DNA from: an uncultured Gemmatimonadota bacterium
GTDB lineage: Bacteria; JAAXHH01
Direction: 5' to 3'
Assembly: GCA_951812955.1 (NCBI GenBank)
Contig: OX638340.1
Location: 2,304,001-2,368,000 of the forward strand
Length of the DNA: 64,000 bases
The stretch's first letter is position 1. The number at the start of each line of letters is the position of its first letter. The translations under genes were made by a program, and so were the position numbers. Shown piece after piece: positions 1-19,491 of the stretch. The notes below the pieces were generated by a model. It was not told where the DNA came from. It searched no databases and saw only the letters and a program-made list of their open reading frames with translations.

Positions 1-126
1 GCTTCCAGGGGAGTCCGCTGGCCGGTTTCAGCGACTGTATCCGTTGCGGAGGATTGGGCCTGTAGGCGACCCTGCATGAGTAAAACGAGCAGCACCGCTA
101 CCAGAAGAACAGGGTATCTGGTCATG
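1..126 (-). CDS. Partial CDS: N-terminal ~42 aa (signal-peptide-like MTRYPVLLVAVLL...) of a small secreted protein that continues beyond the window start
   Basis: Reverse-strand ATG at 124-126. It is a near-identical copy of the N-terminus of the chimeric ORF at 4935..5057. The N-terminus is hydrophobic. Confidence 0.35.
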
Positions 127-237
127 CCAAACCAACTTGTAGGGGGAAATGACGAAAAGAGATGGAACCTGCTTTAACAGATCCAGGTAATGCCTGCAAC
201 CTACCCTTATTCGCGGCCACAGTCAAACAAAAGCGGC

Positions 238-2610
238 CTAATCTCGCCGCAGGGTGTCCGCCGGGTTGAGCATGGCGCTTCGGAAGGTATGCACGCTCAC
301 GGTGAGCAGGGCGGTGGCCAGGACAACCAGTCCCGCCGCGACGAAAGGCGCAGCACCGATCTCCGTCCGGTAGGCGAAGTCCGCCAGCCACTCGTTCATG
401 AGCCACCAGGCGGCCGGCCAGGCGAGGACGTTGCCGATCACCACGAGGACGACGAACTGCCTCGACAGCAGGCCGACTATATCTGAGACCGCGGCGCCCA
501 TCACCTTGCGGATGCCGACTTCCCGCGTGCGGCGCGCGATGTCCAGCGACACGAGTCCATATACACCCAGGCAGGCGATCAGCAGGGCGAATACCGCGGA
601 ATAGGTGAAAATGCGCGCAAGGTTGGCTTCACCCTCGTAGAATCGGGCGATGTCGTCATCAAGGAAGGAATACTCGAAAAGCGATTCCGGGGCGATCTCC
701 ATCCATGCCGCTCTCAACAGATCCAACGTGGCAGGCAGGTCCCGCCCGCTGACGCGTACCAGGAGGAAATTAACACCACCCTGGGTTTCCTCCCCGAAGG
801 AAGCGGGATTCATCGTCAGGATTACCGGCTCTATTTCTTGATGCATCGACTGGTAGTGGTAGTCCTCCAACACGCCGATGACCGTATATCCGTGGGGCAG
901 GGTCCGTCCGAGGGGGTCGTCCCATTCCATCACCCTGGCCGCGGCTTGGTTGATTATACATGACCCGGATTCGTCGTTGCCGAACTCCCGGGAAAAATCT
1001 CGTCCTGAGACCAGGTTCAGCTCTAGCGCCTTCACGTAATCGTAATCCACCGTGAACATATATGCTTCAAGCTTGTTCCCGTCCTTATCTGTATAGGCGG
1101 ACTGACCCAGGCCCCGACCGAAGGTGTTGGAAGCTCCCGTCACCAGGATTACGTTCTCATACGAGTTTATCCTGGATTTATAGACGTCCGCGGAGTTGGA
1201 ATTGGGCCCCATGTGGATGACGATGACGTTTTCCTTGTTGTATCCCAGATCTGTGTTCATGACGAAGTCCAACTGTCGGGTCATGACGAGTATGGAAACA
1301 ACGAGTAAGGCAGACAGGCCGAACTGGACGACCATCAGGCCGCGGATAACCAGGTTTGGGCTCCCGATCCGAACCTGATGTCTGAATACGGCAACGGGAT
1401 TGAAACGGGAGAGGATCAGGGCGGGATAGCTCCCGGACGCCAGGGCAACCAGGCCAGTCAACACTAGTAGCGCGGCGATCGTAGAGCCGTTGGAGAGATA
1501 ATCTAGGACGTATGAGCTTCCCGCCAGCGTGTTGAATACAGGAAGAAACAGGTGGGCCAGGATAACGCCTAAGATGAGGGCGAAGCAACTCAACACCGCG
1601 GTCTCACCCAGGAACTGTTTCATGATCTGGGTTTTCTGCGCACCGAACACCTTCCGCAGTCCAACCTCCCTGGCGCGCGAAGACGATCGGCAGAAGGCCA
1701 GGTTCATGAAATTCACGCAGGCGATGAAAAGAACGAAAAGCGCCGTGCAAATCAGTATGTAAGACCTGTTGGGATCGCTCGTGGTACCCTGGCCAAACCT
1801 CACACCCTGAGCAAGATACATGTCCGTTAAAGGCTGCAATTCCAGGTATGGCGATCCCATCTGTGAAAAATGAGTCTCGACAAAACCCGGCAACTGGTTT
1901 TCAAGCATGTCTGCCATTTCCGGATCCGACAGCTCGACGTAGGTTGAGGAGACACTGTAGTTCCAATTGCCGATCGCCTGATTCGTCCAGTTGTCGATAG
2001 CAAACATTTTGTCGAAGGGGATCAGGAAATCGAACCGTATGCTGGAATTAACCGGAGTGTTCTCTGCTACCCCGGCCACCAAAAACGGTTCACCTCGTAT
2101 CGTGAGTTGCCTGCCCAGGGGGCTTCCCGTCCCAAAATACTTCTCGGCGGCGGACTGGCTGATCACCACCGAGTTCAGTTCGTTCAGGACCGTCCCGGGA
2201 TCACCTTCGATCAATGGGAAGGAGAACACGCTGAATATCGATGGATCGCTATACAGAACGTGTTCTTCCCGGAACACATCATTACCAACACGGACTTCCG
2301 CCCCTCCGGTGGTTCGTATTCGCACGGTCTGTTCGACGCCGGGATACTGTTCCTTAAAGGCAGCGGCAAGTGGAAGAGGGGTAATCCCACTGGTATATAA
2401 GTTATCCTCGAAACCTGATCCACCGACGTTGACCCGGTAGATCCGGTCCGCCTTCTCGTGAAAGGCGTCGTAGGTCCACTCCTGGCGCACGAAGAGAAAT
2501 ACGAGGAGGCTGCAGGCGATGCCGGTGGACAGGCCCAGCGTGTTGATGAAGAAGTAGCCCTTGTTGCCGAACAGGTGCCGAAACGCGATGACAAGGTGGT
2601 TTTTCAGCAT
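238..2610 (-). CDS. ABC transporter permease, FtsX/MacB-like with duplicated FtsX domains (790 aa)
   Basis: N-terminus MLKNHLVIAFRHLFGNKGYFFINTLGLSTGIAC... is typical of MacB/FtsX permeases. A large periplasmic domain lies between TM helices. Two FtsX-type C-terminal TM bundles are present (...IARRTREVGIRKVMGA...). Confidence 0.85.
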   Translation of the reverse strand: MLKNHLVIAFRHLFGNKGYFFINTLGLSTGIACSLLVFLFVRQEWTYDAFHEKADRIYRVNVGGSGFEDNLYTSGITPLPLAAAFKEQYPGVEQTVRIRTTGGAEVRVGNDVFREEHVLYSDPSIFSVFSFPLIEGDPGTVLNELNSVVISQSAAEKYFGTGSPLGRQLTIRGEPFLVAGVAENTPVNSSIRFDFLIPFDKMFAIDNWTNQAIGNWNYSVSSTYVELSDPEMADMLENQLPGFVETHFSQMGSPYLELQPLTDMYLAQGVRFGQGTTSDPNRSYILICTALFVLFIACVNFMNLAFCRSSSRAREVGLRKVFGAQKTQIMKQFLGETAVLSCFALILGVILAHLFLPVFNTLAGSSYVLDYLSNGSTIAALLVLTGLVALASGSYPALILSRFNPVAVFRHQVRIGSPNLVIRGLMVVQFGLSALLVVSILVMTRQLDFVMNTDLGYNKENVIVIHMGPNSNSADVYKSRINSYENVILVTGASNTFGRGLGQSAYTDKDGNKLEAYMFTVDYDYVKALELNLVSGRDFSREFGNDESGSCIINQAAARVMEWDDPLGRTLPHGYTVIGVLEDYHYQSMHQEIEPVILTMNPASFGEETQGGVNFLLVRVSGRDLPATLDLLRAAWMEIAPESLFEYSFLDDDIARFYEGEANLARIFTYSAVFALLIACLGVYGLVSLDIARRTREVGIRKVMGAAVSDIVGLLSRQFVVLVVIGNVLAWPAAWWLMNEWLADFAYRTEIGAAPFVAAGLVVLATALLTVSVHTFRSAMLNPADTLRRD

Positions 2611-2779
2611 GATCGTTTTGCCTCCTGTCGCTTACGAGCTGTAAGCCGGAAAACGTTCCTGAGGAAACACGATCTTGGAATGGCAAAGGGGATCTACGGT
2701 TTCGACCCGTCGATCCCCTGAAAAGTTGCATGTTGGTAACTATTGCGATGCCGGAACTTACGTAGTGCATTCCCGACTG

Positions 2780-4381
2780 TCAGTCAACGACAAACGTGTT
2801 TTCACTACGGCGAAAACTCCTATCATCGCCAAACGAAACATCATAAACCAGTCTATACTCACCGGCGACTTCCGGATCGTATGGGCAAGCGTCGAATTCC
2901 ACCCGTGTGGCCTCGATGTCTTCCCATGTACTGCCCATATCGTCGCTTCGCTGCCATACGGAGTAATGGACCGTCATGGGGATACCTAACGGCTGAGTTG
3001 GGTAGTTGTTTAGTTCAGCACGAAAGAGTGAACTTGCACAGTATTCTATAGTTATAGGAGTATATCCTGGTCCCGTGAATATCAACTTACCGGGCTCGAC
3101 CTTCCAACCTTCCCACGGGACATAGACTATCTCGTCGACTGGCTCGTCGACGCCTTCGCCGCCATCCCCGCCATCCCCGCCTTCACCACCTTCCCCTTCA
3201 GTCGGAACCATGACCGTGATACTCACCATGGCCGACACGTCGCCGGACGCGGCCGTGACTACGGCCATGCCGTTGCCCACCGCTTCTACCAATCCATCCT
3301 CGTCCACGGTGATCACGTTTTCGTCACCGCTCGTCCACGTGACGGCCGGTTCGGCAATGGCATTGTCGTTCCCGTCGCTGACGGAAACCATGAGTTGCAG
3401 GGTCTGTTCGATCTCGGTCAGCGTGGTGGCATCGGGTGCGACCTCGATGCTGATGCCGGCCGGAACCTGGGCGACGGTGATCGACGCAGTCCCCATAGCG
3501 TCTCCGGCCTGTGCCGTGATCTCCGCCATGCCGTTGTCCACCGCGGTCACAAGCCCGTTCTCGTCCACGGTGGCCACGGCGTCATCGGCGCTTGACCAGG
3601 TCACCATCACGTCCTCCATCGCGTTTTCGTGCTGGTCCAGCACGACGGCCGCGAGTTCCACGGTGTCGCCGATCGCTTCCAGCGTGTGCGCAGCGGGCTC
3701 GATCGTCAGGCTCGTCGGCACGGATACGGATACCGTGATGGACGCACTGGCGGACAGGCTGCCGGATGTGGCCGTGATCTCAGCCATCCCGTTACTCACC
3801 GCCGTTACAAGGCCCGCCCCGCTCACGGTCGCCACGGCGTCGTCGCCGCTCGACCAGGTGATGGACTGGCCGGACATGATGTTGTTCCGCTGATCCCGCA
3901 CCGTAGCCGACAACTGTACCGTTTCCCCGATCGCCTTCAGCGTATGGGACGTCGGTGCGACCGTGATCCGGGTCGGCACCGGCTCGGCCACCGTGATGTT
4001 CGCAGTGCCCGTCGCGTTGCCGGACTGCGCCCTTATTTGCGCGGCGCCGTTGGCCACGGCCGTCACCAGGCCATTTCCGCTGACAGTCGCCACCGCGGTA
4101 TTGCTGCTCGACCAAGTCACCGCCTGGCCGGTCATCGGATTGTTGTTCTGGTCCCTCACCATGGCCATCAGTTGCACGGTCGCGCCAATCGTCGCCAGCG
4201 TGTGCGAAGACGGCGTGACAGAAATGCTCGTCGCAACGGGCGCAGGCGGTGGAGCAGGCGGGGTCGGTGTGGACGGCTCGGGACTCGTCGGGCTGCTGTC
4301 CCCGCCACCGCATCCCGCCAGAAAAACCAGGTACAAGGATGCCGTGATCTTGGCGAACACGCGACTGTATGGACCAAACAC
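2780..4381 (-). CDS. Surface lipoprotein with 4 bacterial Ig-like (Big-2) repeats and a distinct C-terminal domain (533 aa)
   Basis: Lipobox LVFLAGC is followed by a Pro/Thr-rich linker. There are four ~85-aa repeats of the type VTPSSHTLATIGATVQL...VTWSS...ATVSGNGLVTAV.NG.A.I.A. A Gly/Glu-rich linker follows, then a ~120-aa C-terminal domain. Confidence 0.8.
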   Translation of the reverse strand: MFGPYSRVFAKITASLYLVFLAGCGGGDSSPTSPEPSTPTPPAPPPAPVATSISVTPSSHTLATIGATVQLMAMVRDQNNNPMTGQAVTWSSSNTAVATVSGNGLVTAVANGAAQIRAQSGNATGTANITVAEPVPTRITVAPTSHTLKAIGETVQLSATVRDQRNNIMSGQSITWSSGDDAVATVSGAGLVTAVSNGMAEITATSGSLSASASITVSVSVPTSLTIEPAAHTLEAIGDTVELAAVVLDQHENAMEDVMVTWSSADDAVATVDENGLVTAVDNGMAEITAQAGDAMGTASITVAQVPAGISIEVAPDATTLTEIEQTLQLMVSVSDGNDNAIAEPAVTWTSGDENVITVDEDGLVEAVGNGMAVVTAASGDVSAMVSITVMVPTEGEGGEGGDGGDGGEGVDEPVDEIVYVPWEGWKVEPGKLIFTGPGYTPITIEYCASSLFRAELNNYPTQPLGIPMTVHYSVWQRSDDMGSTWEDIEATRVEFDACPYDPEVAGEYRLVYDVSFGDDRSFRRSENTFVVD

Positions 4382-4463
4382 TGCTGTCTCCTTTCGGCTA
4401 ATTACTGAAAAGCGGTTCGTTGTAATCTACCGTTCTTGATCTCGATGAACAGATTATCTGACT

Positions 4464-5057
4464 TCATGCACGCAGGCCCTTCATACTCTCCCGGGCCGCT
4501 TCGAGGGTCCGGTCGATGTCTTCTTCGGTATGGGCCAGGGACACAAACCCCGTTTCAAGGCGCGAAGGCGCCAGGTAGACGCCCCGGTCCAGCATATTCC
4601 AGAAGTATCGCCCGTACGTATCCGCGTCTGACGTGGAAGCTGCATCGAAATTGTTGACGGTCTGATCTGTGAAGAAGGTACACATCATGGAGCCCACACG
4701 GGTCAGGCAGGCCGGGACGCCGGCCGCTTCCGCCGCGGCGCGAAGGCCGTCGCCGAGGCGGGCGGCCAGGGATTCCAGCCGGTCGTAGACCCCGGGTTCC
4801 TGAAGCTGCCGCACCGTTTCATATCCAGCGGTCATGGCAAGCGGATTGCCGGACAGCGTGCCGGCCTGGTAAACCTCACCGGCGGGCGCCACGGTTTCCA
4901 TGAACTTTTCCTGGTCGAATAGCGCACGTCCCGCTTCCAGGGGAGTCCGCTGGCCGGTTTCAGCGACTGTATCATCTGCGGTGGATTGGGCCTGGAGGCG
5001 ACCCTGCATGAGAAAAACGAGCAGGACCGCTACCAGAAGTACAGGGTATCTGGTCAT
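4464..5057 (-). pseudogene. Chimeric duplication-junction ORF: signal peptide of the small secreted protein fused in frame to the C-terminal 145 aa of glutamate-1-semialdehyde aminomutase (hemL fragment)
   Basis: Residues METVAPAGEVYQAGTLSGNPL...ESMKGLRA are identical to the C-terminus of hemL at 9855..11144. The N-terminal 50 aa matches the ORF at 1..126. Similarity to unit 2 stops abruptly at ~4903. Confidence 0.6.
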
Positions 5058-5169
5058 GGCAAACCAACTCGTAGGGGGAAATGACGGAAAGAAATGGAAC
5101 CTGCTTTAACATATGCAGGTAATGCCTGCAACCTACCCTTATTCGCGGCCTCAGTCAAACAAATGCGGC

Positions 5170-7541
5170 CTACTCGCTCCGCAGGGTGTCCGCCGGGTTG
5201 AGCATAGCGCTTCGGAAAGTATGCACGCTCACGGTGAGCAGGGCGGTGGCCAGGACAACTAGTCCCGCCGCGACGAAAGGCGCAGCACCGATCTCCGTCC
5301 GGTAGGCGAAGTCCGCCAGCCACTCGTTCATGAGCCACCAGGCGGCCGGCCAGGCCAGGACGTTGCCGATCACCACGAGGACGACGAACTGCCTCGACAG
5401 CAGGCCGACTATATCTGAGACCGCGGCGCCCATCACCTTGCGGATGCCGACTTCCCGCGTGCGGCGCGCGATGTCCAGCGACACGAGTCCATATACGCCG
5501 AGGCAGGCGATCAGCAGGGCGAATACCGCGGAATAGGTGAAAATCAGCGCCAGGTTGTTCTCATCCTGGTAGAACCGTTCTATATCGTCTTCCATGAAGA
5601 AATACTCGTAGGGCGTCTCAGGCGCTGTCCCCTTCCACGCGTCCTCGAGCAGGGAAAGCGTGGTTGGCAGATCCCTGCCGCTGACCCGGACCAGGAGGAA
5701 GCCGTAACTGACCGAAGTGTTACCCATGGATGTGGGATTGAGGGAGAGTATAATCGGATCGATCTCCTGGTGCAGCGACTGGAAATGGAAGTCCTTGACT
5801 ACGCCGATTACCGTATACCCATGGGGCAGTTTGCGCCCGATCGGATCTTCCCATTCCAGCTTCTTTGCCGCGGCCTCGTTGATGATGCACGATTGGAACT
5901 CGTCGTTTACGAATTCGCTGGAAAAATCACGGCCACGGACGAGGTTCAGTTCAAGCGTCTCCAGGTAATCGCGGTCCACGGTCGCCATGAACGCTTCCAG
6001 CTTGTTTCCGTCCGGTCGGTGTAGGCAACCTGGGGCAAGAAATGCCCCTGACCAAAGGTGCTGGAAGTGCCGGAAACCAGGAGTATGTCTTCGTACGGTA
6101 TCACTTTGCTGCGAAAGATCTCCAGGTCGTTTGAATTGAAGGGGGCCTGGATGACTACCACGTTGTGCGGGTTGAACCCCAAATCCCCCGTCCGCACAAA
6201 GTCCAGCTGCCGGGTCATGATGAGAATTGAAATGACGAGCAACGCGGACAACCCGAACTGCACGACCATCAAGCCGCGCACGAAGAGATTCGGCCCTCCG
6301 ATCTGAACCTGTTGCCGGAAGATGGTGACGGGGTTGTAGTGTGAGAGCACCAGGGAAGGATAACTGCCGGAAACCAGGGCGACCAGCACGGTCAAACCCG
6401 TCAGCGCGGCCAGCGTGGATCCGTTCGTCAGGTAGTCCAGCACGAGGGACTTTCCCGCCAGCATATTGAAAACCGGAAGGAACAGGTGGGCCAGGGCCAC
6501 GCTCAGCACCAGGGCGAAGCAGCACAGCGCCGCGGTTTCGCCCAAGTGCTGTCCCATGATCTGGGTTCGGCGCGCGCCGTAAACTTTCCTGACACCGACC
6601 TCTTTCACACGCGAAGACGAACGGCAGACGGCCAGGTTCATGAAGTTGACGCAGGCGATGAATAGTACGAGCAGCGCCGTGCAAATCAGGATGTAGGACC
6701 GGTTGGGATCGCTGGTGGGACCCAGCCCGAATTTGACTTCCTGATCCAGGTAGATATCGGTGATGGGTTGCAGGATCAGATAGGGCGACGAGTAGGCCGG
6801 GAAATGGGTTTCGACGAATTCCGGCAGTTGACTGAGGAGCGATTCTACTCGATCCGGATCCCCGAGTTCGATGAAAGTGGCCGTGGACGAATAGTTCCAC
6901 TTTCCGATGGCATTCGATATCCAGGGGTTTATTTCCGGCGCCTTGTCAAAGGGTATGAGCAGGTCGAACCGAATACTGGAGTTATCCGGTCCGTTCTCCG
7001 CGACGCCGGTTACGGTCAGCGGAATGCCCTGTACCAGGAGCGTCCTGCCCGTCGGAGACTCCTGGCCGAAGTACTTCGCCGCGGCGGATTTGCTGACGAC
7101 CACTGAATTCGCCTCGCCGAGGGCCGTACCGGGATCGCCTTCGATCATCGTGAAGGAGAACATCTCGAAGAAGGACGGATCGCAGAAAAGGGCGTTCTCC
7201 TTGCGGAACGTATCTTCTCCGATGCGAATATCGGATGGATATTCCGTTATGCGCACGGTCCGGACCACGTCGGGATATTGCTGCTCCAGGGTAGCCGCGA
7301 GCGGGAGGGGAGTTCTCGCGCTTATGAACGGGTTGTCGTCGAAATCCACTCCACCGGCTGCGACCTGGTAGATCCGGTCCGATTTCTCGTGGAAGGCGTC
7401 GTAGGTCCACTCGTGGCGGACGAAGAGAAAGATCAGGAGGCAGCACGCGATACCGGTCGACAGGCCAAAAGTATTGATGAAGAAATAACCCTTGTTGGCG
7501 AACAGGTACCGCAACGCGATGACGAGGTTGTTTTTCACCAT
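5170..7541 (-). pseudogene. Second copy of the FtsX/MacB-like ABC permease, apparently frameshifted (two overlapping ORFs 5946..7541 and 5170..6900)
   Basis: The N-terminal 531-aa ORF and the C-terminal 576-aa ORF together align to the 790-aa permease at 238..2610. The reading frame is lost around 6010-6030, where ...AYTDR(T)ETSW in this copy replaces AYTDKDGNKLE in copy 1, consistent with a 1-bp indel. This could be a genuine pseudogene or a sequencing error. Confidence 0.55.
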
Positions 7542-7708
7542 GATCGTATTGCCTCCTGTCGCTTACGCATGCAAGCAGGAAAACGCACCTGGGGAAAGAC
7601 GATCCTGCAATGGCAAAGGGGATCTACGGTTTCGACCCGTCGATCCCCTTAAAGGTTGCATGTTGGTAACTATTGCGATTGGGAACTTACGTTGTGCATT
7701 CCTGACTG

Positions 7709-9772
7709 TCAGGGGATGACAAACGTATTCTCACTACGGCGAAAACTCCTATCATCGTCAAGCGAAATATCACCAACCAGTCTATACTCACCGGCGACTT
7801 CCGGATTGTATGGGCAAGCGTCGAATTCCACCCGTGTGTCCTCGATGTCTTCCCATGTACTGCCCATATCGTCGCTTCGCTGCCATACGGAGTAATGGAC
7901 CGTAATGGTGACACCTAACGGAGTTGGGCGGTTGTTTAGTTCTCCACCTAAGAGTGAACTTGCGCAGTTTACTATAGGTATTGTAGCAAGTCCTGGGACC
8001 GTAAAAACCAACCGACCGGGCTCGACCCGCACACCTTCCCACGGGACGTAGGTGACTTCATCCACCGTAATGGTCACCGTGATGCTCACCATGGCCGACA
8101 CGTCGCCGGACGCGGCCGTAACTTCGGTCATGCCGTTGCCCACAGCTTCTACCAACCCATCCTCGTCCACGGTGACCACGTTCTCGTCACCGCTCGTCCA
8201 CGTGACGGCCGGTTCGGCAATGGCATTGTCGTTCCCGTCGCTGACGGAAACCATGAGTTGCAGGGTCTGTTCGATCTCGGTCAGCGTGGTGGCATCGGGT
8301 GCGACCTCGATGCTGATGCCGGCCGGAACCTGGGCGACGGTGATCGACGCAGTCCCCATAGCGCCTCCGGCCTGGGCCGTGATCTCCGCCATGCCGTTGT
8401 CCACCGCGGTGACCACGCCGTTCTCGTCCACGGTGGCCACGGCGTCGTCGCCGCTCGACCAGGTCACCATCACGTCCTCCATCGCGTTTTCGTGCTGGTC
8501 CAGTACGACGGCCGCGAGTTCCACGGTGTCGCCGATCGCTCCCAGCGTGTGCGCGGCTGGCTCGATCGTGATGCTCGTTGCCACGGGCTCGGATATCACC
8601 ATGACCGTGATACTCACCATGGCCGATACGTCGCCGGATGCGGCCGTAACTGCGGCCATGCCGTTCCCCACCGCTTCTACCAAACCATCCTCGTCCACGG
8701 TGGCCACGTTTTCGTCACCGCTCGTCCACGTGACGGCCGGTTCGGCAATGGCATTGTCGTTCCCGTCGCTGACGGAAACCATGAGTTGCAGGGTCTGTTC
8801 GATCTCGGTCAGCGTGGTGGCATCGGGTGCGACCTCGATGCTGATGCCGGCCGGAACCTGGGCGACGGTGATCGACGCAGTCCCCATAGCGTCTCCGGCC
8901 TGTGCCGTGATCTCCGCCATGCCGTTGTCCACCGCGGTCACAAGCCCGTTCTCGTCCACGGTGGCCACGGCGTCATCGGCGCTTGACCAGGTCACCATCA
9001 CGTCCTCCATCGCGTTTTCGTGCTGGTCCAGCACGACGGCCGCGAGTTCCACGGTGTCGCCGATCGCTTCCAGCGTGTGCGCAGCGGGCTCGATCGTCAG
9101 GCTCGTCGGCACGGATACGGATACCGTGATGGACGCACTGGCGGACAGGCTGCCGGATGTGGCCGTGATCTCAGCCATCCCGTTACTCACCGCCGTTACA
9201 AGGCCCGCCCCGCTCACGGTCGCCACGGCGTCGTCGCCGCTCGACCAGGTGATGGACTGGCCGGACATGATGTTGTTCCGCTGATCCCGCACCGTAGCCG
9301 ACAACTGTACCGTTTCCCCGATCGCCTTCAGCGTATGGGACGTCGGTGCGACCGTGATCCGGGTCGGCACCGGCTCGGCCACCGTGATGTTCGCAGTGCC
9401 CGTCGCGTTGCCGGACTGCGCCCTTATTTGCGCGGCGCCGTTGGCCACGGCCGTCACCAGGCCATTTCCGCTGACAGTCGCCACCGCGGTATTGCTGCTC
9501 GACCAAGTCACCGCCTGGCCGGTCATCGGATTGTTGTTCTGGTCCCTCACCATGGCCATCAGTTGCACGGTCGCGCCAATCGTCGCCAGCGTGTGCGAAG
9601 ACGGCGTGACAGAAATGCTCGTCGCAACGGGCGCAGGCGGTGGAGCAGGCGGGGTCGGTGTGGACGGCTCGGGACTCGTCGGGCTGCTGTCCCCGCCACC
9701 GCATCCCGCCAGAAAAACCAGGTACAAGGATGCCGTGATCTTGGCGAACACGCGACTGTATGGACCAAACAC
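7709..9772 (-). CDS. Surface lipoprotein with 6 Big-2 repeats (paralogue of 2780..4381; 687 aa)
   Basis: The N-terminal ~380 aa are identical to copy 1. There are two extra Big-2 repeats (an internal tandem duplication of repeats 3-4). The C-terminal domain is diverged from copy 1 and the Gly/Glu linker is absent. Confidence 0.8.
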   Translation of the reverse strand: MFGPYSRVFAKITASLYLVFLAGCGGGDSSPTSPEPSTPTPPAPPPAPVATSISVTPSSHTLATIGATVQLMAMVRDQNNNPMTGQAVTWSSSNTAVATVSGNGLVTAVANGAAQIRAQSGNATGTANITVAEPVPTRITVAPTSHTLKAIGETVQLSATVRDQRNNIMSGQSITWSSGDDAVATVSGAGLVTAVSNGMAEITATSGSLSASASITVSVSVPTSLTIEPAAHTLEAIGDTVELAAVVLDQHENAMEDVMVTWSSADDAVATVDENGLVTAVDNGMAEITAQAGDAMGTASITVAQVPAGISIEVAPDATTLTEIEQTLQLMVSVSDGNDNAIAEPAVTWTSGDENVATVDEDGLVEAVGNGMAAVTAASGDVSAMVSITVMVISEPVATSITIEPAAHTLGAIGDTVELAAVVLDQHENAMEDVMVTWSSGDDAVATVDENGVVTAVDNGMAEITAQAGGAMGTASITVAQVPAGISIEVAPDATTLTEIEQTLQLMVSVSDGNDNAIAEPAVTWTSGDENVVTVDEDGLVEAVGNGMTEVTAASGDVSAMVSITVTITVDEVTYVPWEGVRVEPGRLVFTVPGLATIPIVNCASSLLGGELNNRPTPLGVTITVHYSVWQRSDDMGSTWEDIEDTRVEFDACPYNPEVAGEYRLVGDISLDDDRSFRRSENTFVIP

Positions 9773-9854
9773 TGCTGTCTCCTTTCGGCTAATTACTGAA
9801 AAGCGGTTCGTTGTAATCTACCGTTCTTGATCTCGATGAACAGATTATCTGACT

Positions 9855-11144
9855 TCATGCACGCAGGCCCTTCATACTCTCCCGGGCCGCTTCGAGGGTC
9901 CGGTCGATGTCTTCTTCGGTATGGGCCAGGGACACAAACCCCGTTTCAAGGCGCGAAGGCGCCAGGTAGACGCCCCGGTCCAGCATATTCCAGAAGTATC
10001 GCCCGTACGTATCCGCGTCTGACGTGGAAGCTGCATCGAAATTGTTGACGGTCTGATCTGTGAAGAAGGTACACATCATGGAGCCCACACGGGTCAGGCA
10101 GGCCGGGACGCCGGCCGCTTCCGCCGCGGCGCGAAGGCCGTCGCCGAGGCGGGCGGCCAGGGATTCCAGCCGGTCGTAGACCCCGGGTTCCTGAAGCTGC
10201 CGCACCGTTTCATATCCAGCGGTCATGGCAAGCGGATTGCCGGACAGCGTGCCGGCCTGGTAAACCTCACCGGCGGGCGCCACGGTTTCCATGATTTCCC
10301 TGCGACCGCCATAGGCCCCCACGGGAAGTCCTCCCCCGATGATCTTGCCCAGGCAGGTCATGTCGGCCGAGATGCCGAATCGTTCCTGCGCTCCGCCGAA
10401 TGCGATCCTGAATCCCGTGATGACCTCGTCAAAAATCAGAATGATCCCCCGCTTCTCCGTCTCTTCCCGAATGGTTTCGAGAAAGCCTTCGGCCGGAGGG
10501 ATCATGCCCATGTTGCCGGCGACCGGCTCTACGATCACGCAGGCGACGTCGCCGCCCCGCTCCGCCAGGGTGCGCCGGACGGCCTCGACGTCGTTGTAGG
10601 GTAGATTGATGGTCATCTTCGCCAGGTCCGCAGGCACGCCGGGACTGTCGGGGATGCCGAATGTCGCGGCGCCGGAACCGGCCTGGATGAGAAAGCTGTC
10701 TCCGTGGCCGTGGTATCCCGCCTCGAATTTGACCGCCAGGTCGCGCCCCGTGTATCCGCGGGCGACGCGCAGGGCGCTCATGGTCGCTTCCGTGCCGGAG
10801 TTGACCATGCGTATCAGGTCGATGGACGGGAAGGCGGTCCTGACCAGTTCCGCCAGCCTGATCTCGGCTTCGGTGGGCGTGCCGAAACTCGTACCCCGTT
10901 CACAGGCCTTCTTCAGGGCCTCGACCACGGCGGGATGGCCGTGGCCCAGGATCAGCGGTCCCCAGGATCCCAGGTAATCGATGTACTCGTTGCCGTCCAC
11001 GTCGTAGACCCTGGAACCCGCGCCCCGGTCCATGAAGACGGGGCTTCCTCCAACCCGCCCGAAATTCCGCACGGGGCTGTTCACCCCGCCGGGCATGGAT
11101 CGCTGGGCCTGGTCGAAGAGGGTACTGGATCGGGAACGGTTCAT
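9855..11144 (-). CDS. hemL: Glutamate-1-semialdehyde 2,1-aminomutase
   Basis: Full-length class III PLP aminotransferase of 429 aa. Motifs are typical of HemL (e.g. YNDVEAV, GGLPVGAYGGRREIM). Confidence 0.95.
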   Translation of the reverse strand: MNRSRSSTLFDQAQRSMPGGVNSPVRNFGRVGGSPVFMDRGAGSRVYDVDGNEYIDYLGSWGPLILGHGHPAVVEALKKACERGTSFGTPTEAEIRLAELVRTAFPSIDLIRMVNSGTEATMSALRVARGYTGRDLAVKFEAGYHGHGDSFLIQAGSGAATFGIPDSPGVPADLAKMTINLPYNDVEAVRRTLAERGGDVACVIVEPVAGNMGMIPPAEGFLETIREETEKRGIILIFDEVITGFRIAFGGAQERFGISADMTCLGKIIGGGLPVGAYGGRREIMETVAPAGEVYQAGTLSGNPLAMTAGYETVRQLQEPGVYDRLESLAARLGDGLRAAAEAAGVPACLTRVGSMMCTFFTDQTVNNFDAASTSDADTYGRYFWNMLDRGVYLAPSRLETGFVSLAHTEEDIDRTLEAARESMKGLRA

Positions 11145-11159
11145 ACGATTTATTCCATT

Positions 11160-12128
11160 TCAGAGTCTTCGGGCGACATCCATCGCGAAATAAGTGAGGA
11201 TCATGTCGGCGCCGGCGCGTTTTATGGCGGTCAGCGACTCCAGGACGATCCGTTCTTCGTCGATCCAGCCTTTCTGTCCTGCCGCCTTGATCATGGCGTA
11301 TTCCCCGCTCACGTTGTAGGCGGCCACCGGCACTTCAAAGGCCGATTTGACTCGTTGTATCACGTCGAGATAGGCCAGGGCCGGCTTGACCATGACGATA
11401 TCGGCGCCTTCCTCAAGGTCGAGTTCTACTTCCCGCAGCGCTTCGGTGGCGTTCGCCGGGTCCATCTGGTAGGAACGGCGGTCGCCGAATTGCGGGACCG
11501 AGTCCGCGGCGTCGCGAAAGGGCCCGTAATACGCCGAAGCGTACTTGGCGGAATAGGCCAGGATCGGGACATGCCCGAGGTGTTCGCCGTCCAGACCCTC
11601 CCGGATCGCACGCACGCGGCCGTCCATCATGTCCGACGGCGCAACCAGGTCCGCGCCGGCGCGGGCCTGCGAGAGCGCGGTCCTGACGAGCAGGCGAAGC
11701 GTGGCATCGTTCTCCACGTCGCCGTCCCGGATCACGCCGCAGTGCCCGTGATCGGTGTACTCGCAGAGGCATACGTCGCCGATGACGGTCAGTTCCGGTA
11801 CCGCTTGCTTGATCGCGCCAATGGCCCGTTGCACGATGCCGTCGTCCGCATAGGCTCCGGAACCGTAGGCGTCCTTGCTCTCCGGGATGCCGAAGAGCAT
11901 GACGGCCGGGATACCCAGGTCCACGACTTCACGGCAGGCCTCCACGGCCTGGTCAACCGACTGCCGGTCCACGCCGGGCATCGAATCTACCGGGGAACGT
12001 ACGCCTTCGCCCGGGCAGATGAACATGGGATAGACCAGGTCGTCCACGGAGAGCCGGGTCTCGCCGATCATGGCGCGCAGGCTTCCGGTCCGCCGCAGGC
12101 GCCGTAGCCGATGTACGGGAAATGCCAT
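11160..12128 (-). CDS. hemB: Porphobilinogen synthase (delta-aminolevulinate dehydratase), Zn-type
   Basis: Collinear match to E. coli HemB along the full length. It includes the Cys-rich zinc site [14 protein letters not shown] and the active-site region [10 protein letters not shown]. Confidence 0.95.
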
Positions 12129-12154
12129 GAGTTATCCTGCCCGCCGCCGGGACA

Positions 12155-12772
12155 TCAGTACCCCCCGCAGTTGGCGCAACCGCCGCTGTCAAATCCGTTC
12201 AAAGCACTGCAGCGTTCACACTGGAACAGGAGATGCCCGGCGTCTATGGACCGTGACGCCATCAAATTCAGCGCCGTCGCCCGGAGTTTCGAGGGCACGA
12301 TGATCCTCGCCGACTCGTCCGAACATGGACCGGTAAGCAGGCCGGAGTCCTGCTTGGTCGAGAACACCCGGCTGTCCACACCCTGCTGTGCGAGGAAACG
12401 CTGGTAGCTCAGCGCTTCACGGTCTTCGGCCCGATAGAGGATTTCCTCCTTCGGAAACTCTTCTACCAATCCATGTCTTTCACAGAAATACCGGCCATGA
12501 CGGCGTATCCCGCAGTCCTCGCACACGTGCCGTCCGCAGACGACGCACAGGCCGTGCGCAGGTCCGGCCGGATGGTTCAGGCATCGAAGATCGTCGATGA
12601 ATACTGTGCCGCAGACCGGGCAGGACCCCAGGTCGCCCGGGATCTCCTCCTTGCACTCGTCGCAAACCCACGTCGACACCTCATTCAGGGCGTTAACCAG
12701 GGTGGACGCGCAGATAGGGCATTTTTCCTCGCCGCGGGCGTATTCACATTCGCATTCCGGGCAGAAAGGCAT
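12155..12772 (-). CDS. Cysteine-rich zinc-ribbon protein (about 8 CxxC pairs), unknown function, embedded in the haem operon
   Basis: 205 aa with repeated CxxC pairs (CPEC, CPIC, CDEC, CPVC, CVVC, CEDC, CERC, CANC). No similarity to known Hem enzymes was recognised. Confidence 0.55.
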   Translation of the reverse strand: MPFCPECECEYARGEEKCPICASTLVNALNEVSTWVCDECKEEIPGDLGSCPVCGTVFIDDLRCLNHPAGPAHGLCVVCGRHVCEDCGIRRHGRYFCERHGLVEEFPKEEILYRAEDREALSYQRFLAQQGVDSRVFSTKQDSGLLTGPCSDESARIIVPSKLRATALNLMASRSIDAGHLLFQCERCSALNGFDSGGCANCGGY

Positions 12773-12967
12773 AGAAGTCCGCTCATATCAACAGGATGGT
12801 GCCATGACGGGCGCGGTGAAGCCACTGGCCCGATGCCGGAAAGTATACGAACCCGATGCCGGATAGTTTACTGGTCCAAAGTCGGCCGCGCGTCGTATTT
12901 CACACGGATATGTCCCTTATTCACGGACCCGACAAATATACACCGGGCCGCAAAGTCATGGCAATCG

Positions 12968-14539
12968 TTATTCCGTGTGCTGCTTTCCCGCGGCCAGCCG
13001 GTCGCGCACGATCGCGGCCACGAGCGCTGAGACGGTGGCCTGAGCGGGCACAATGTCCACGGACAGGCCTGCTTCCGCGGCGGTTTTGGCCGTGGCCGGA
13101 CCTATGCAGGCGATGCGGACGCCCCCGGCCAGCCGCTTAAGGCGATCCGGCCCCGCGGCCTTCGTAAACGCCGACACGGCCGACGAACTCGCGAATACGG
13201 CGAGATGGATCTTCCGGTCTTCCAGCATGGACGCGATGCCGTCCGGCAACCTCTCTTCCATGACCGTTCGATAGACCGTTATCCTCGTCACGGACGCACC
13301 GGCGCGGGCAAGTCCCTCCACGACGGCTGGCCCCGCGATATCCGCCGCGGGAAAGAGGATCCGTGCATCCAGCAGGTCGCGGTTTCCGGCCAGGGTTTCC
13401 ACCAGGTTTTCGGCCCGGAAGACATCGGGTTGGCAGTCCGCTTCAATCCCGCAGTTTCGCAGCGCGCCGGCCGTGGCCCGGCCTACCGCGGCGACGCGAA
13501 CTCCGCCCAGGGCCCTGGCGTCCAGGCCCTGTTCGACTAAACGCGAGAAAAACGCCTTCACGGCGTTACCGCTGGTGAAAACCACGTAATCGAATCCGGA
13601 AAGGTCGGACAGCGCGGCATCGGTTTCCGACCAGTCATCGGGCGCTTCGATCCGTATCAGCGGAGCTTCGACCGGCTCCGCGCCCTGCCGGACGAGAGAT
13701 TCCGACAGTTCGCCGGCCTGGTCGCGGGCGCGTGTTACCAGTGCTCGGACCCCGAAAAGCGGTTTCGATTCGAACCAATCGAGCTGCGAACGCAGCGAAA
13801 CGACTTCGCCCACGACGATCAGTACGGGCGGGGTGAAGGAAGCCGGACGGGACCTGGATACGATATCGTCCAAAGTGCCGACGAGGGTCCTTTGCTTCGG
13901 CGTCGTGCCCCACTGGATCAGCGCGATGGGCGTATCCTTCGGCCGCCCGTGTTCGATCAACCGTTCCACGATGAAGGGCAGGTTCCGCGCGCCCATGTAG
14001 AAGATCAGCGTGCCGATCCGTTTGGCGAAAGCCTCCCAGTCTAGATCCGTCCGGGACTTGTCCGGCGATTCGTGGCCGGTGACCACGGTCATCGTCGAGG
14101 TGATCTCACGATGGGTCACCGGTATGCCGGCGTAGGCCGGGACCGCGACGGCCGCCGTGACGCCGGGAACGACCTCGAATGGGATTCCGTGGCGTTGCAG
14201 GTGCAGTCCTTCTTCGCCTCCCCGGCCGAACACGAATGGGTCGCCGCCCTTCAACCGGACCACGGTCTTCCCGGCCTCGCTGTGACGCACCAGCAGGTTG
14301 TTGATCTCCTCCTGCCGTCCGGGACGCCAGGGAACGCGGATGCGCACGGCCTGTGAAGGCGCCTCCGCCACCAGCCGGTCATCGGCGAGGAAATCGGCAA
14401 CGACGACGTCGGCCCGGCGCACGCATTCCAGGCCCTTCACGGTAATCAGTCCGGGGTCGCCGGGACCCGCGCCCACCAGGTAAACGATTCCTGCGGACCG
14501 CGGGGTGGATACGCGCTTGGTCGGGGATTCGCCGTTCAT
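12968..14539 (-). CDS. cobA/hemD: Bifunctional uroporphyrinogen-III C-methyltransferase / uroporphyrinogen-III synthase
   Basis: The N-terminal half carries the SUMT signature VYLVGAGPGDPGLITVKG...VVRLKGGDPFVFGRGGEE. The C-terminal half is HemD-like (...LFGVRALVTRARDQ...). The 3' end overlaps hemC by 4 bp. Confidence 0.9.
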   Translation of the reverse strand: MNGESPTKRVSTPRSAGIVYLVGAGPGDPGLITVKGLECVRRADVVVADFLADDRLVAEAPSQAVRIRVPWRPGRQEEINNLLVRHSEAGKTVVRLKGGDPFVFGRGGEEGLHLQRHGIPFEVVPGVTAAVAVPAYAGIPVTHREITSTMTVVTGHESPDKSRTDLDWEAFAKRIGTLIFYMGARNLPFIVERLIEHGRPKDTPIALIQWGTTPKQRTLVGTLDDIVSRSRPASFTPPVLIVVGEVVSLRSQLDWFESKPLFGVRALVTRARDQAGELSESLVRQGAEPVEAPLIRIEAPDDWSETDAALSDLSGFDYVVFTSGNAVKAFFSRLVEQGLDARALGGVRVAAVGRATAGALRNCGIEADCQPDVFRAENLVETLAGNRDLLDARILFPAADIAGPAVVEGLARAGASVTRITVYRTVMEERLPDGIASMLEDRKIHLAVFASSSAVSAFTKAAGPDRLKRLAGGVRIACIGPATAKTAAEAGLSVDIVPAQATVSALVAAIVRDRLAAGKQHTE

Positions 14540-15516
14540 TGGGATTCCGTGGTCCGCCTGGTCGGCCCGGACGACTTGGACTGCGTGTTACCTTCGGCCT
14601 GCTCGGCCTGCTCGGCTTGTTCGGCCCGTGCCATCACCGCTTCCGCCAGCCGGCGGCCCAGTTCCGGTCCTTCTTCCGGCAGTCCCCGCAGGCCGTGGCG
14701 CGCGATCCAGCTGCCGTCATCGGCGGCCAGCACGGCGTCCAGCTCCAGGCAATCGTCCCGGATTCTCCCCCAGGCGCCAACCGGGGTATGGCAACCGCCG
14801 CCTATACGATAGAGAAAAGACCGCTCCGCCATCACCGCCTGCCTGGCCGGGAGGTCCTCGATTCGCCTTGCCGCTTCCAAGGTGGGATGATCGTCCTTAC
14901 GGGTTTCAATCGCGAGCGCCGCCTGGCCGACGGCCGGCATGCAGACCTCCGGCGGCAATATCTCGGATATGCGGTCATTCCAGCCCAGTCGCTGCAATCC
15001 CGCCACGGCCAGCACGATGGCGTCCGGACCGTCCGGTTCTTCCAGTTTCTTCAACCTGGTGTCTATATTCCCTCGAATGCCCGAAAAGCGCAGATCCGGC
15101 CGGTAATGTTGAAGCTGCGAGCGCCGCCTCGGACTCCCCGTGGCGACCAGGGCGCCCGATGGGAGCTCGTCGAGTCTGGCGCTGTCGCGGCTGATCAGGG
15201 CGTCCCGCACGTCCACGCGCTCCGGCACCGCGGCGATCGCCAATCCATCGGGAAGGGACGTGGGCAGGTCCTTGAGACTGTGTACGGCCATGTCGATCTC
15301 TCCCGAGACCAGGGCCCGTTCCAGTTCCTTGACGAAGACGCCCTCGCCGCCGAAGGTGTCCAGGGAAGCGCTTCTGTCAGAATCGCCCTTCGTCTTGATG
15401 ACGCGCACCTGTACGGACAGGCCGCCCTGGCCCGCTTCCAGGTCCTTGGCCACCGAATGGGCCTGGACGAGGGCCAGCCTGCTGCCGCGGGTGCCTATGA
15501 TCAATGAAGAAGCCAT
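14536..15516 (-). CDS. hemC: Hydroxymethylbilane synthase (porphobilinogen deaminase)
   Basis: N-terminal LIIGTRGSRLALVQA motif. The length and domain order are typical of HemC. Confidence 0.93.
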   Translation of the reverse strand: MASSLIIGTRGSRLALVQAHSVAKDLEAGQGGLSVQVRVIKTKGDSDRSASLDTFGGEGVFVKELERALVSGEIDMAVHSLKDLPTSLPDGLAIAAVPERVDVRDALISRDSARLDELPSGALVATGSPRRRSQLQHYRPDLRFSGIRGNIDTRLKKLEEPDGPDAIVLAVAGLQRLGWNDRISEILPPEVCMPAVGQAALAIETRKDDHPTLEAARRIEDLPARQAVMAERSFLYRIGGGCHTPVGAWGRIRDDCLELDAVLAADDGSWIARHGLRGLPEEGPELGRRLAEAVMARAEQAEQAEQAEGNTQSKSSGPTRRTTESQ

Positions 15517-15555
15517 GGGAAGGGATCGACGTCCCGGACGCCTGGACTCGCCGCG

Positions 15556-16854: not shown

Positions 16855-17507
16855 GACTCCACCCTGTCGCGTGCTTCTTCCGCGCGTCCGGCGCGTATGA
16901 GATCGAGGAGGTCGGAATCTACCAGGGACGTCCACAACCTCGCGCGTGTTTCGATTTCGTCGGGGTGCCTGTCCTTCATCCGGGGACGGAACTCCCCCAG
17001 CAGGTCGAGCAGGACGGCGTACTCGGCCCCGAATGCCTCTTCCAGCTGCCCACGGATCTTCTTCGCCAGCGCGGGGCTCTTGCCCCCTGTGGATATGGCG
17101 ATGCACAGGTCGCCCTGTCGAACGATGGATGGCACGATGTACCTGCACAGTTCGGGCACGTCCACCACGTTGACCATGATGCCTTCCGTCTCGGCATCCA
17201 CGTAGACCCGCTCGTTGACTTCCGCGGAGTCGGTCGCGGAGATGACCAGCCTGAAATCCCGGACGTCGCCGGGTTCGTACCGCCTTGCGAGCCAGCGCAA
17301 TTCGCTATTGTCCGCCCGGTCACGCAGTTCCTCCGTCAGATCGGGGCTGATCACGGTTACAACCCCTCCGCATTCGAGCAACGATCCAGCCTTCTCAGCC
17401 GCGATCGCGCCGCCGCCTACCACCAGGCACGGCTGTCCTTCGATGTCAACGAAAGCGGGGTAGTATTTCTTCATGGCCTTTCTTCCATCTTTCACCGGAT
17501 CGGTCAC
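16830..17507 (-). CDS. sirC: Precorrin-2 dehydrogenase / sirohydrochlorin ferrochelatase (siroheme synthase N-terminal domain, CysG-N/SirC/Met8-like)
   Basis: The Rossmann motif VVGGGAIAAEKA is typical of CysG-N/Met8. The 225-aa length fits. It sits directly upstream of hemA and overlaps it by ~25 bp. Confidence 0.8.
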   Translation of the reverse strand: MTDPVKDGRKAMKKYYPAFVDIEGQPCLVVGGGAIAAEKAGSLLECGGVVTVISPDLTEELRDRADNSELRWLARRYEPGDVRDFRLVISATDSAEVNERVYVDAETEGIMVNVVDVPELCRYIVPSIVRQGDLCIAISTGGKSPALAKKIRGQLEEAFGAEYAVLLDLLGEFRPRMKDRHPDEIETRARLWTSLVDSDLLDLIRAGRAEEARDRVESCILHSSD

Positions 17508-17537
17508 CGAAATCTCTCGCCGGCATCAGGCTTCGGA

Positions 17538-18359: not shown

Positions 18360-18507
18360 GGATGTAACCTCGAAGTGATACCGCCTCGATAATTCAGACC
18401 CGATAAGATACCGTAAAATACCGTCCTATCATGTATTTATCAAGTCGAAAGGGGTGCGGGCCGGGTCGCCTGGGTCGCACGCGCCTGGATCGCCTCGCTA
18501 GGGTCGC

Positions 18508-19425: not shown

Positions 19426-19491
19426 AACGCGTTTTTCTCCTGTCTATAAAACCGTAACTCATGGGTCTTCAGTGCAACGGGTCCACGCCGG

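Follow-up and report, generated by a model that had tools for sequence, protein, structure and literature searches.

The first 10,294 nucleotides (1-10294) of the window, by which we mean the whole 64,000-nucleotide stretch of an uncultured Gemmatimonadota genome analysed here, were found to be a tandem duplication with a unit of ~5.36 kb. Comparison with related genomes showed that each unit carries a different allele, both of them old and divergent, of a cassette that is hypervariable and single-copy in all relatives. With a probability that we put at about 0.6, the locus records a recent, lineage-specific tandem duplication that holds two old alleles following allele import and a short gene conversion, with permease copy 2 (perm2) likely being a pseudogene. 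The original prediction dealt with the two permease genes and did not see this wider setting, in which the permease is one part of the 5.36-kb duplication.

On the minus strand, the unit comprises the 3' part of hemL, a Big_2 lipoprotein gene, the permease gene and geneX (TPR/GWxTD) up to codon 52. The units lie head to tail and are connected by a single novel junction that is absent from relatives, as in a tandem duplication. Self-comparison of unit 1 (1-4903) with unit 2 (4933-10294) revealed an identity varying from 55% to 100%; the unit-1 counterpart of 4904-4932 and the remainder of geneX fall beyond the window. The longest perfect tract between the units, 1,590 bp, is located outside the permease and ends exactly at the duplication junction, which was defined by comparison with hemL and the geneX orthologue of L021 (Table 1). 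This tract is the main signature of recency in the locus. The chimeric ORF at the junction is a by-product of the duplication and not a short aminotransferase. In the Big_2 lipoproteins, the first 395 aa of copy 2 are 99% identical to those of copy 1, while copy 2 has two additional Ig domains and differs in its C-terminal domain, which has diverged. The junction sequence had 0 exact matches in the JGI metagenome collection, no RNA family was found by Rfam anywhere in the window, and a promoter/terminator scan returned sites no more numerous than in shuffled sequence.

Table 1. Coordinates of the features of the duplicated locus within the window.
Feature	Position	Strand	Description
geneX 5' end, full-length copy	1..125	minus	TPR + GWxTD protein in relatives; continues past left window edge; 93% identical to geneX' fragment 4933-5057
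perm1, permease copy 1	238..2610	minus	Intact, 790 aa; 92% identical to single-copy L023 orthologue
Conversion patch in perm1	425..564	minus	100% identical to perm2 5357-5496; 40 consecutive informative sites (427-559) conflict with perm1's clade
Big_2 lipoprotein gene, copy 1	2780..4381	minus	533 aa, lipobox LAGC, 4 Big_2 domains
Perfect tract, unit-1 copy	3314..4903	minus	1,590 bp, equal to 8705-10294; hemL 3' fragment, intergenic region, first ~355 codons of Big_2 gene
Chimeric ORF	4464..5057	minus	197 aa: geneX signal-peptide region (52 aa) + hemL C-terminal 145 aa; Aminotran_3 match partial only
Novel duplication junction	4903..4904	.	geneX codon 52 joined in frame to hemL Met285; patchy microhomology (..GGAAAAGTTC joined to ATGGAAAC..)
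perm2, permease copy 2	5170..7541	minus	8-TM duplicated MacB_PCD+FtsX permease, -1 frameshift in second periplasmic domain (codon ~510); from Pfam, tblastn, hydropathy
Donor-type tract in perm2	5357..5496	minus	91-92% identical to L020/L024/L012
perm2 N-terminal ORF	5946..7541	minus	531 aa: 510 native residues + 21-aa out-of-frame tail; called protein P0032
perm2 frameshift site	6012..6013	minus	Plus strand CC where CCC expected; coding strand CGG-GAC to CGGAC
Big_2 lipoprotein gene, copy 2	7709..9772	minus	687 aa, 6 Big_2 domains
Perfect tract, unit-2 copy	8705..10294	minus	Within intact hemL and Big_2 gene 2
hemL, intact (glutamate-1-semialdehyde 2,1-aminomutase)	9855..11144	minus	Upstream boundary of duplicated unit; breakpoint 10294/10295

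In related genomes, the arrangement hemB-hemL-Big_2-permease(-geneX) is present once in 19 of 22 GTDB species loci and in L023 and L024, which are all the related loci long enough to show the neighbourhood. Between species, the permease shares 64-84% identity, whereas hemB and hemL share 85-98%. Within this lineage of invertebrate-associated MAGs, the Big_2 lipoprotein/permease cassette beside the hem genes forms a hypervariable replacement locus. Unit 1 shares 93-98% identity with L023, L026 and L028, and the perm2 core reaches at best 80-86%. Permease copy 1 (perm1) is 92% identical to the L023 gene; for perm2, neither a frameshifted nor an intact twin was found in the collections searched, where its closest overall match shares 79% identity, and closer relatives sought in the JGI metagenome collection reached 70% at best. 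In a neighbour-joining tree of aa 61-665, perm1 was placed with L023, L025, L026 and P0023 (100% bootstrap) and perm2 with L105 and P0002 (100%). Between the two cores, dS is about 1.5 and dN/dS is 0.18. Because the cores belong to different well-supported clades and are separated by such a dS, they represent old allelic lineages that were recently brought together.

The identity of perm1 and perm2 is strongly non-uniform along the gene, in agreement with the mosaic originally proposed, though its dimensions differ from those given. The last ~400 bp had been described as identical; they are nearly so, with 9 differences in 375 bp (97.6%; 238-612 versus 5170-5544), and the longest perfect stretch within the permease is 140 bp (425-564, equal to 5357-5496). 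At the protein level, 122 of the last 125 aligned residues are identical and the final ones differ (RRD versus RSE). The upstream identity of ~60% holds for the two periplasmic domains, while it is 78-80% in the membrane segments and 66% over aa 1-665 as a whole. At 40 consecutive informative sites (427-559), perm1 is equal to perm2 and both are unlike the perm1 clade, and on either side of this run the pattern is the opposite, at 63 and 5 sites. In addition, perm1 and perm2 are sisters (94%) in a tree of aa 666-790, incongruent with the tree of their cores. Such a sharply bounded discordant tract, together with the incongruence of core and C terminus, demonstrates gene conversion. The perm2 copy of the tract is native to the perm2-type lineage, since it is 91-92% identical to L020, L024 and L012. 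Recent conversion is therefore confirmed over 133-140 bp only, with the intact copy 1 as recipient and the frameshifted copy 2 as the donor type, and not over the whole ~400-bp 3' segment or in the reverse direction. The other 3' similarity of the two permeases is conserved backbone that is also common to the copy-1 clade.

Two stretches each of MacB_PCD (PF12704; 1.4e-38) and FtsX (PF02687; 2.5e-22) were matched in perm1, and MacB_PCD+FtsX was likewise matched in each half of perm2. Hydropathy analysis predicted 8 hydrophobic segments and periplasmic domains at ~41-280 and ~446-665, that is, two PCD+FtsX modules internally duplicated within one polypeptide. The permease resembles the ADOP (TIGR03434)/YbbP-type fused MacB/FtsX (type VII ABC) permeases, which have ~790-800 aa with two MacB_PCD and two FtsX domains. 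Its match to TIGR03434 (NCBIfam) is end to end (aa 6-790 on profile positions 5-803 of 803), but the score of 293.1 bits is below the curated cut-off of 622.3, and it does not belong to ADOP by that measure. It also differs from YbbP, which is described with two extra linking helices, in having 8 TM segments by hydropathy. Neither the window nor the L023 and L024 neighbourhoods contain an ABC ATPase gene next to the permease, which is again like the ADOP/YbbP type, as the NBD is encoded separately in fused family members (PMC5985334). MacB/FtsX-type permeases operate with a cognate ABC ATPase (mechanotransmission). By analogy, the product is expected to consist of two MacB-type 4-TM units fused into a pseudo-dimer, with the ABC ATPase that drives it encoded elsewhere (PMC5985334), and it probably acts together with the co-varying Big_2 lipoprotein.

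The claim that perm2 is split by a 1-bp frameshift, and that ORFs 5946..7541 and 5170..6900 form one permease gene of ~790 aa in two frames, was borne out. In the nucleotide alignment of copy 1 (238-2610) with copy 2 (5170-7541), indels of 3, 6, 1 and 3 nt were found, all of them multiples of three except the 1-nt gap at ~6015. The insertion of one G into perm2 produces a stop-free 790-aa protein 71% identical to copy 1. The coding strand of perm2 reads GAC CGG ACG GAA at the lesion and the orthologues L006, L015, L017 and L020 carry GAC CGG GAC GGx AAC, from which we conclude that one G of a GGG run is missing. Consistently, a tblastn alignment with the L023 orthologue changes from frame -3 to frame -2 at 6012. 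Relative to intact orthologues, perm2 thus carries one disabling lesion, a single -1 indel at 6012-6013; the homopolymer had been placed at 6015-6025, slightly away from the relevant run. A compensating second indel was ruled out, as the remaining indels are all multiples of three. A 2-aa difference just 5' of the frameshift was also dismissed as a sign of decay, because it is common to the clade of perm2 and hence reflects a deletion in the clade of perm1. The frameshift cuts the protein off after TM5.

Three readings of this lesion were considered, among which a true and recent pseudogene is the probable one; perm2 would most likely be a young pseudogene that could be dispensed with as long as copy 1 is intact. 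Possible, at clearly lower odds, is that the tandem structure is real and the frameshift arose in sequencing or consensus calling; a 3-nt homopolymer would have been called as 2, and copy 2 would be an intact second permease allele. The contig names of the relatives (but not of the source itself), of the form ctg17301_75x_c, follow what we take to be the naming style of metaMDBG, which would imply polished PacBio HiFi data. A change of homopolymer length is the commonest residual error of long-read consensus (PMC11392814), and the metaMDBG paper describes polishing and states that residual contig errors are mostly homopolymers (PMC11392814), which would fit an error here. The lesion of perm2 is indeed single and lies in a homopolymer, with no second disabling mutation found in the gene, but the run is just 3 nt. 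The locus is strain-variable, which can disturb polishing, yet no other split gene is evident within the 64 kb: among ~58 predicted genes, the coding scan, a suffix-score tiling that recovered the perm2 frameshift, flagged no overlap other than that of perm2 that separate genes do not explain, the suspicious neighbours checked were distinct genes with full-length domain matches, and the seven genes flanking the locus are collinear and gap-free relative to L023. The repaired frame is open over 790 codons and dN/dS is 0.15-0.18 on either side of the frameshift site, the pairwise value 3' of it still being low at 0.15. Against an error, however, non-synonymous changes specific to perm2 are in excess 3' of the frameshift, where N:S on the perm2 lineage is 21:11, as against 13:26 for L105, its sister (uncorrected Fisher p = 0.009; 32 perm2 substitutions, parsimony-polarised at saturated dS). 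Moreover, perm2 breaks 8 otherwise-invariant positions, R401H, R500H, Y524R, G545V and R666L among them, which is the highest number among 36 family members though by a slight margin (6 in the next sequences), and it has radical replacements at such positions. The third reading, in which the change of frame is functional, either by programmed ribosomal frameshifting or as a split permease whose 510-aa N-terminal module acts as a MacB-like half-transporter, has hardly any likelihood. Programmed frameshifting was rejected, since it would need a -1 shift and GAC CGG ACG offers no slippery X XXY YYZ heptamer. The N-terminal ORF of perm2 does keep a complete MacB_PCD+FtsX unit, and MacB-type units can work as homodimers (PMC5985334), but the break falls inside the second periplasmic domain after TM5 and not between the two modules, and 0 of about 40 family members are split.

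Returning to the preferred account of the whole array, the duplication arose by illegitimate recombination at short patchy microhomology, as is shown by the junction at 4903/4904. Most economically, an in-place duplication would have left the 1,590-bp perfect tract ending at this junction, after which the permease-containing part of one copy would have been replaced through homologous recombination with DNA of a related lineage. The informative sites show a third step, in which a conversion of 133-140 bp wrote perm2-type sequence into the intact perm1. Finally, the second periplasmic domain of perm2 carries the -1 frameshift (GGG to GG), and with the intact copy 1 as cover the gene has most likely become a pseudogene. 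A one-step event of homology-facilitated illegitimate recombination with a divergent donor was set aside as less economical, because the tract at the illegitimate joint differs at no position from the resident hemL/Big_2 sequence (100% identity). It is very improbable that, as originally modelled, the copies are tandem paralogues that diverged after an old duplication in place and whose 3' ends gene conversion later homogenised. The tandem arrangement, the diverged cores, the high-identity tracts and the demonstrable conversion patch would all fit that model, and the mosaic and the conversion do stand. However, the core dS of ~1.5 far exceeds the 4-6% flank divergence from L020 and L023, although these and about 20 others are single-copy; each core is closer to genes of other genomes with 100% bootstrap; and a non-functional hemL fragment matches hemL at 100% identity as far as the junction itself. 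An assembly artefact, in which cassette alleles of two coexisting strains were joined in one contig, is also improbable, if somewhat less so. The source is a metagenome-assembled genome, the cassette is single-copy in all relatives, the junction has no independent sighting, and identical flanks around a diverged cassette are the pattern that two strains would give at a variable locus. A strain bubble nevertheless provides no route by which an assembly could return from geneX codon 52 to mid-hemL; the junction sequence must occur in reads. The junction is also in frame and of the microhomology type, as in biological illegitimate recombination, and the 140-bp perm2-type patch in perm1 is simplest to explain if both copies reside on one chromosome.

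For annotation, perm2 should be flagged as a frameshifted gene or probable pseudogene, and perm1 and perm2 should not be handled as recent paralogues. In this genome two alleles lie next to each other and the scars of recombination can still be read. It is a natural case of duplication, import of an allele and conversion over a short tract, and opens no new question. The locus is a well-understood kind of genome rearrangement and represents ordinary biology, not a new system.

Tandem duplication via microhomology-mediated illegitimate recombination, with allelic replacement or gene conversion as a later step, is textbook bacterial genome dynamics. The array conforms to it in its head-to-tail unit, its single novel junction, where a few bases of microhomology occur, the perfect tract abutting that junction and the short conversion patch. 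Different from the textbook case, the alleles in the two units have a dS of ~1.5, and a second step, the import of a foreign allele, is therefore required. Displacement arrays formed by homology-facilitated illegitimate recombination have been described for the T6SS effector-immunity arrays of Vibrio cholerae and for Rhs orphan 3' ends (PMC5361080; definition in PMC3240628). As in those arrays, a divergent incoming allele of a variable module lies beside the resident one, the old copy remains as a non-functional remnant, and homology on one side is combined with an illegitimate joint on the other. Nevertheless, the 1,590-bp tract at the joint shares 100% identity with the resident sequence here, so that a divergent donor would need later homogenisation, and the module is a permease plus lipoprotein instead of a toxin-immunity pair.

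In Neisseria, gene conversion proceeds from the silent cassette pilS to the expression locus pilE. It is conceivable, at low odds much like those of an assembly artefact or a little below them, that the tandem array is functional in a similar way, with the silent, frameshifted cassette serving as a store of sequence that conversion passes on to the expressed permease/Big_2 lipoprotein pair. Such a silent reservoir would, if real, give an invertebrate-associated (sponge-type) symbiont a means of varying an envelope-exposed module whose hypervariability extends across the whole lineage. The direction of the single detectable conversion tract, from the silent copy to the intact one, is compatible with this reading. 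As with pilS and pilE, a short tract of the type found in the non-functional copy has been received by the intact copy. Unlike pilS/pilE, the array shows no guide sequence or repeated cassette structure, and its one tract lies in the conserved C-terminal membrane domain and not in the variable periplasmic domains.

Self-comparison resolved positions 1-4903 (unit 1) and 4933-10294 (unit 2) into two copies of one unit, unit 1 with an intact permease gene (perm1) and unit 2 with a frameshifted one (perm2). In Pfam searches, each permease showed two stretches of MacB_PCD and two of FtsX, the Big_2-repeat lipoproteins showed four (copy 1) and six (copy 2) Big_2 domains, and the 197-aa ORF gave only a partial aminotransferase match. 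Hydropathy analysis placed eight membrane segments in the permease, with periplasmic domains at residues ~41-280 and 446-665.

Features of the duplicated region, its junction and other genes of the window
Feature	Coordinates	Strand	Remark
hemB	12128-11160	minus	
hemL	11144-9855	minus	
Big_2-repeat lipoprotein gene, copy 2	9772-7709	minus	687 aa
perm2	7541-5170	minus	
197-aa ORF	5057-4464	minus	chimeric
Junction, geneX side	4903/4904		..GGAAAAGTTC / GCGGAAGC
Junction, hemL side			..GGGAAATC / ATGGAAAC
Big_2 gene, copy 1	4381-2780	minus	533 aa
perm1	2610-238	minus	790 aa
geneX	start at 125	minus	exits window at left edge
Tetrapyrrole gene cluster	9855-17516	minus	complete
Ankyrin-repeat protein	33757-34824	minus	355 aa; Ank_2, 1.4e-35
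PIN-domain ORF	51876-52214	minus	112 aa

The tetrapyrrole cluster (a siroheme synthase-like gene, hemA, hemC, a cobA/hemD fusion, a gene for a 205-aa zinc-ribbon-like protein, hemB and hemL) is collinear and gap-free relative to the related locus L023. The ankyrin-repeat gene has a GNAT acetyltransferase gene and a glutaminyl cyclase gene as neighbours; combined with relatives' isolate names (IRC1_bin, APA_bin, RHO2_bin, Plut_), we take it as a hint of a marine-invertebrate symbiont. The PIN-domain ORF has a 17-nt overlap with the end of an enolase-superfamily gene and may encode the toxin of a toxin-antitoxin pair.

Nucleotide alignment of perm1 and perm2 revealed four indels (3, 6, 1 and 3 nt), and the length of perm2, 2372 nt, is no multiple of three. 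At the 1-nt gap the perm2 coding strand reads GAC CGG ACG GAA, whereas the orthologues L006, L015, L017 and L020 read GAC CGG GAC GGx AAC, indicating that one G of the GGG run was lost in perm2 (CC at 6012-6013 on the plus strand). The frameshift, at codon 510, falls within the second periplasmic domain, and the N-terminal ORF, on record as protein P0032, stops 21 out-of-frame codons past it. With one G put back, perm2 encodes 790 aa without a stop, confirming the original prediction that a 1-bp frameshift splits this copy and that its two ORFs rebuild a permease of ~790 aa. Programmed frameshifting is not supported at this site, where a -1 shift would be needed and a slippery heptamer is absent.

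Past the 3' end of the permease gene the units are 93% identical; the value is 82-93% across the permease 5' end and intergenic region and reaches 98% at the Big_2 3' end. Along the permease, the profile is non-uniform (core 55-75%, 3' end 97-99%), in line with the original prediction. Beyond an indel of ~460 bp, comprising two extra Ig domains in Big_2 copy 2 and a shorter linker, 1,590 bp (3314-4903 = 8705-10294) lack any difference, and this tract ends exactly where unit 1 departs from hemL, the glutamate-1-semialdehyde 2,1-aminomutase gene. At the junction, the first 52 codons of geneX, whose product in relatives is an 806-aa TPR and GWxTD protein, are joined in frame to Met285 of hemL, and patchy microhomology is common to both parents. 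Such an anatomy is that of a tandem duplication by illegitimate recombination. The chimeric ORF, composed of the signal-peptide-like 52 residues of geneX and the last 145 of hemL, retains the geneX upstream region and could be misannotated as a short aminotransferase.

The two Big_2 lipoproteins are 99% identical over their first 395 aa and divergent beyond. The two additional domains of copy 2 represent an internal ~530-bp repeat (8076-8733 and 8604-9252, 89% identity), a Gly/Glu/Asp-rich linker (EGEGGEGGDGGDGGEG) is present in copy 1 and absent from copy 2, and the C-terminal non-Ig domains share ~75% identity. Between the Big_2 and permease genes, the intergenic region of unit 2 (7504-7703) matches L020 and L023 at 96% identity, compared to only 89% for that of unit 1 (2601-2800), which is 88-89% identical to unit 2, a hint that unit 2 may carry the resident backbone here. 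In both regions, no Rfam family was found and promoter matches were not above chance.

At the protein level, perm1 and perm2 share 80% identity in TM1, 60% in the first periplasmic domain, 78% in TM2-5, 61% in the second periplasmic domain and 98% in TM6-8; the ~60% predicted for the whole upstream part thus describes the periplasmic domains but not the membrane segments. Their 3' ends, predicted to be identical, are highly similar but differ at 9 positions in 375 bp, the longest perfect run being 140 bp (425-564 = 5357-5496), and dS over the last 124 codons is 0.07. Since C-terminal codons of orthologues from different species reach only 80-91% nucleotide identity, the 98-99% between perm1 and perm2 exceeds plain conservation. 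Informative sites were classed over the last 800 nt of perm1: at 63 sites, down to 568, perm1 agrees with its own clade and not perm2, at 40 consecutive sites (559-427) with perm2 and not its clade, and at 5 sites (328-241) again with its clade. Differences at 424 and 565 delimit the patch. In perm2 the tract is 91-92% identical to L020, L024 and L012, which carry perm2's own allele kind. The discordant sites in perm1 and the native tract in perm2 make the intact perm1 the recipient of a 140-bp patch from perm2-type sequence. Demonstrable conversion between the copies, which was predicted, is confined to this patch, the other 3' similarity (238-424 and downstream) being backbone common to perm2 and the perm1 clade (92-96%).

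The relatives are metagenome-assembled genomes, many of them complete chromosomes, that bear the label Gemmatimonadetes, Latescibacterota or "bacterium". Of their 22 GTDB species loci, 19 carry hemB-hemL-Big_2-permease(-geneX) once, as do L023 and L024; the other three loci are contig fragments, with the neighbourhood beyond their ends. Identity to the window proteins is 85-98% for HemB and HemL but only 64-84% at the amino acid level for the permease (~24 genomes), and the Big_2 protein varies to a similar degree (loci L001-L024; permease at 10001-12370, Big_2 gene upstream). Permease allele types do not track flank similarity: L020 and L023 have similar flanks (96% and 94.6% nucleotide identity to the window, respectively) but unlike allele types. 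The cassette is a hypervariable locus within conserved surroundings, and the pattern suggests that it is swapped by recombination. A distant second paralogue of the duplicated permease (~32% identity, 820 aa) lies ~6 kb downstream of the cassette in relatives (L023, 18140-20602; L004 and L020, ~18160-20600), a region that here falls past the window's left edge.

Unit 1 is collinear with L023 (90.5%), and perm1 is 93-98% identical to L023, L026, L028 and L021, while the best match of the perm2 core reaches only 80-86%. Neighbour-joining trees of the core (aa 61-665) grouped perm1 with L023, L025, L026 and protein P0023, and perm2 with L105 and protein P0002 (100% each), whereas a tree of the 125 C-terminal residues made them sisters (94%). 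The separate core clades identify the copies as two old alleles brought together, and with single-copy relatives they contradict divergence in place of the two, which the original prediction called tandem paralogues. An old in-place duplication was rejected: the core dS of ~1.5 (dN/dS 0.18) is far above the 4-6% by which the flanks differ from relatives with one copy, so that many independent losses would be required. Lying directly against the junction, the perfect tract spans the functionless hemL fragment and the intergenic region, and the arrangement, or its last homogenisation, is therefore very young. Judged from these sequence patterns, the most economical history would start with duplication of one unit; homologous recombination with a related lineage would then have replaced the part of one copy that bears the permease, and the 140-bp patch would have come last. 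Homology-facilitated illegitimate recombination in a single integration step (PMC3240628, PMC5361080) yields an identical gene order, but alone leaves the 100% identity beside an illegitimate joint unexplained.

We consider the perm2 frameshift a real lesion with a probability of about 0.65, the alternative being a sequencing or consensus error. Presumably, the assembler of this MAG series can be recognized from relatives' contig names (e.g. ctg17301_75x_c). Most residual errors of that assembler are homopolymers (PMC11392814), and the single lesion of perm2 is a homopolymer length change in a strain-variable region, which speaks for an error. The homopolymer, however, is merely 3 nt long, and seven upstream genes align end-to-end, gapless and in a single frame with L023 orthologues. 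Moreover, when the window was tiled for coding potential, giving ~58 genes, no flagged overlap other than perm2 was left unexplained by separate genes, the remaining close same-strand neighbours being separate genes with full-length domain matches. Downstream of the lesion, the perm2 lineage has 21 non-synonymous to 11 synonymous changes against 13:26 in its sister L105 (p = 0.009, uncorrected), whereas no difference between the two lineages is seen upstream of it. Perm2 also breaks 8 otherwise-invariant positions, several radically, the highest number among 36 family members. Taken together, the feature is an ordinary but instructive case that combines duplication with the import of an allele, conversion over a short tract and probable pseudogenisation, for which the original prediction was largely right in observation and half right in interpretation.

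The permease periplasmic domains and the C-terminal part of the Big_2 lipoprotein are the most variable regions, suggesting that they may cooperate at the cell envelope. No ATPase gene adjoins the permease. The intact permease matches TIGR03434 end to end, but at 293 bits against a curated cut-off of 622 bits, and shares its architecture with the ADOP/YbbP-type fused MacB permeases, whose ATPase is encoded separately and in which conformational change is passed to the periplasmic domains (PMC5985334).
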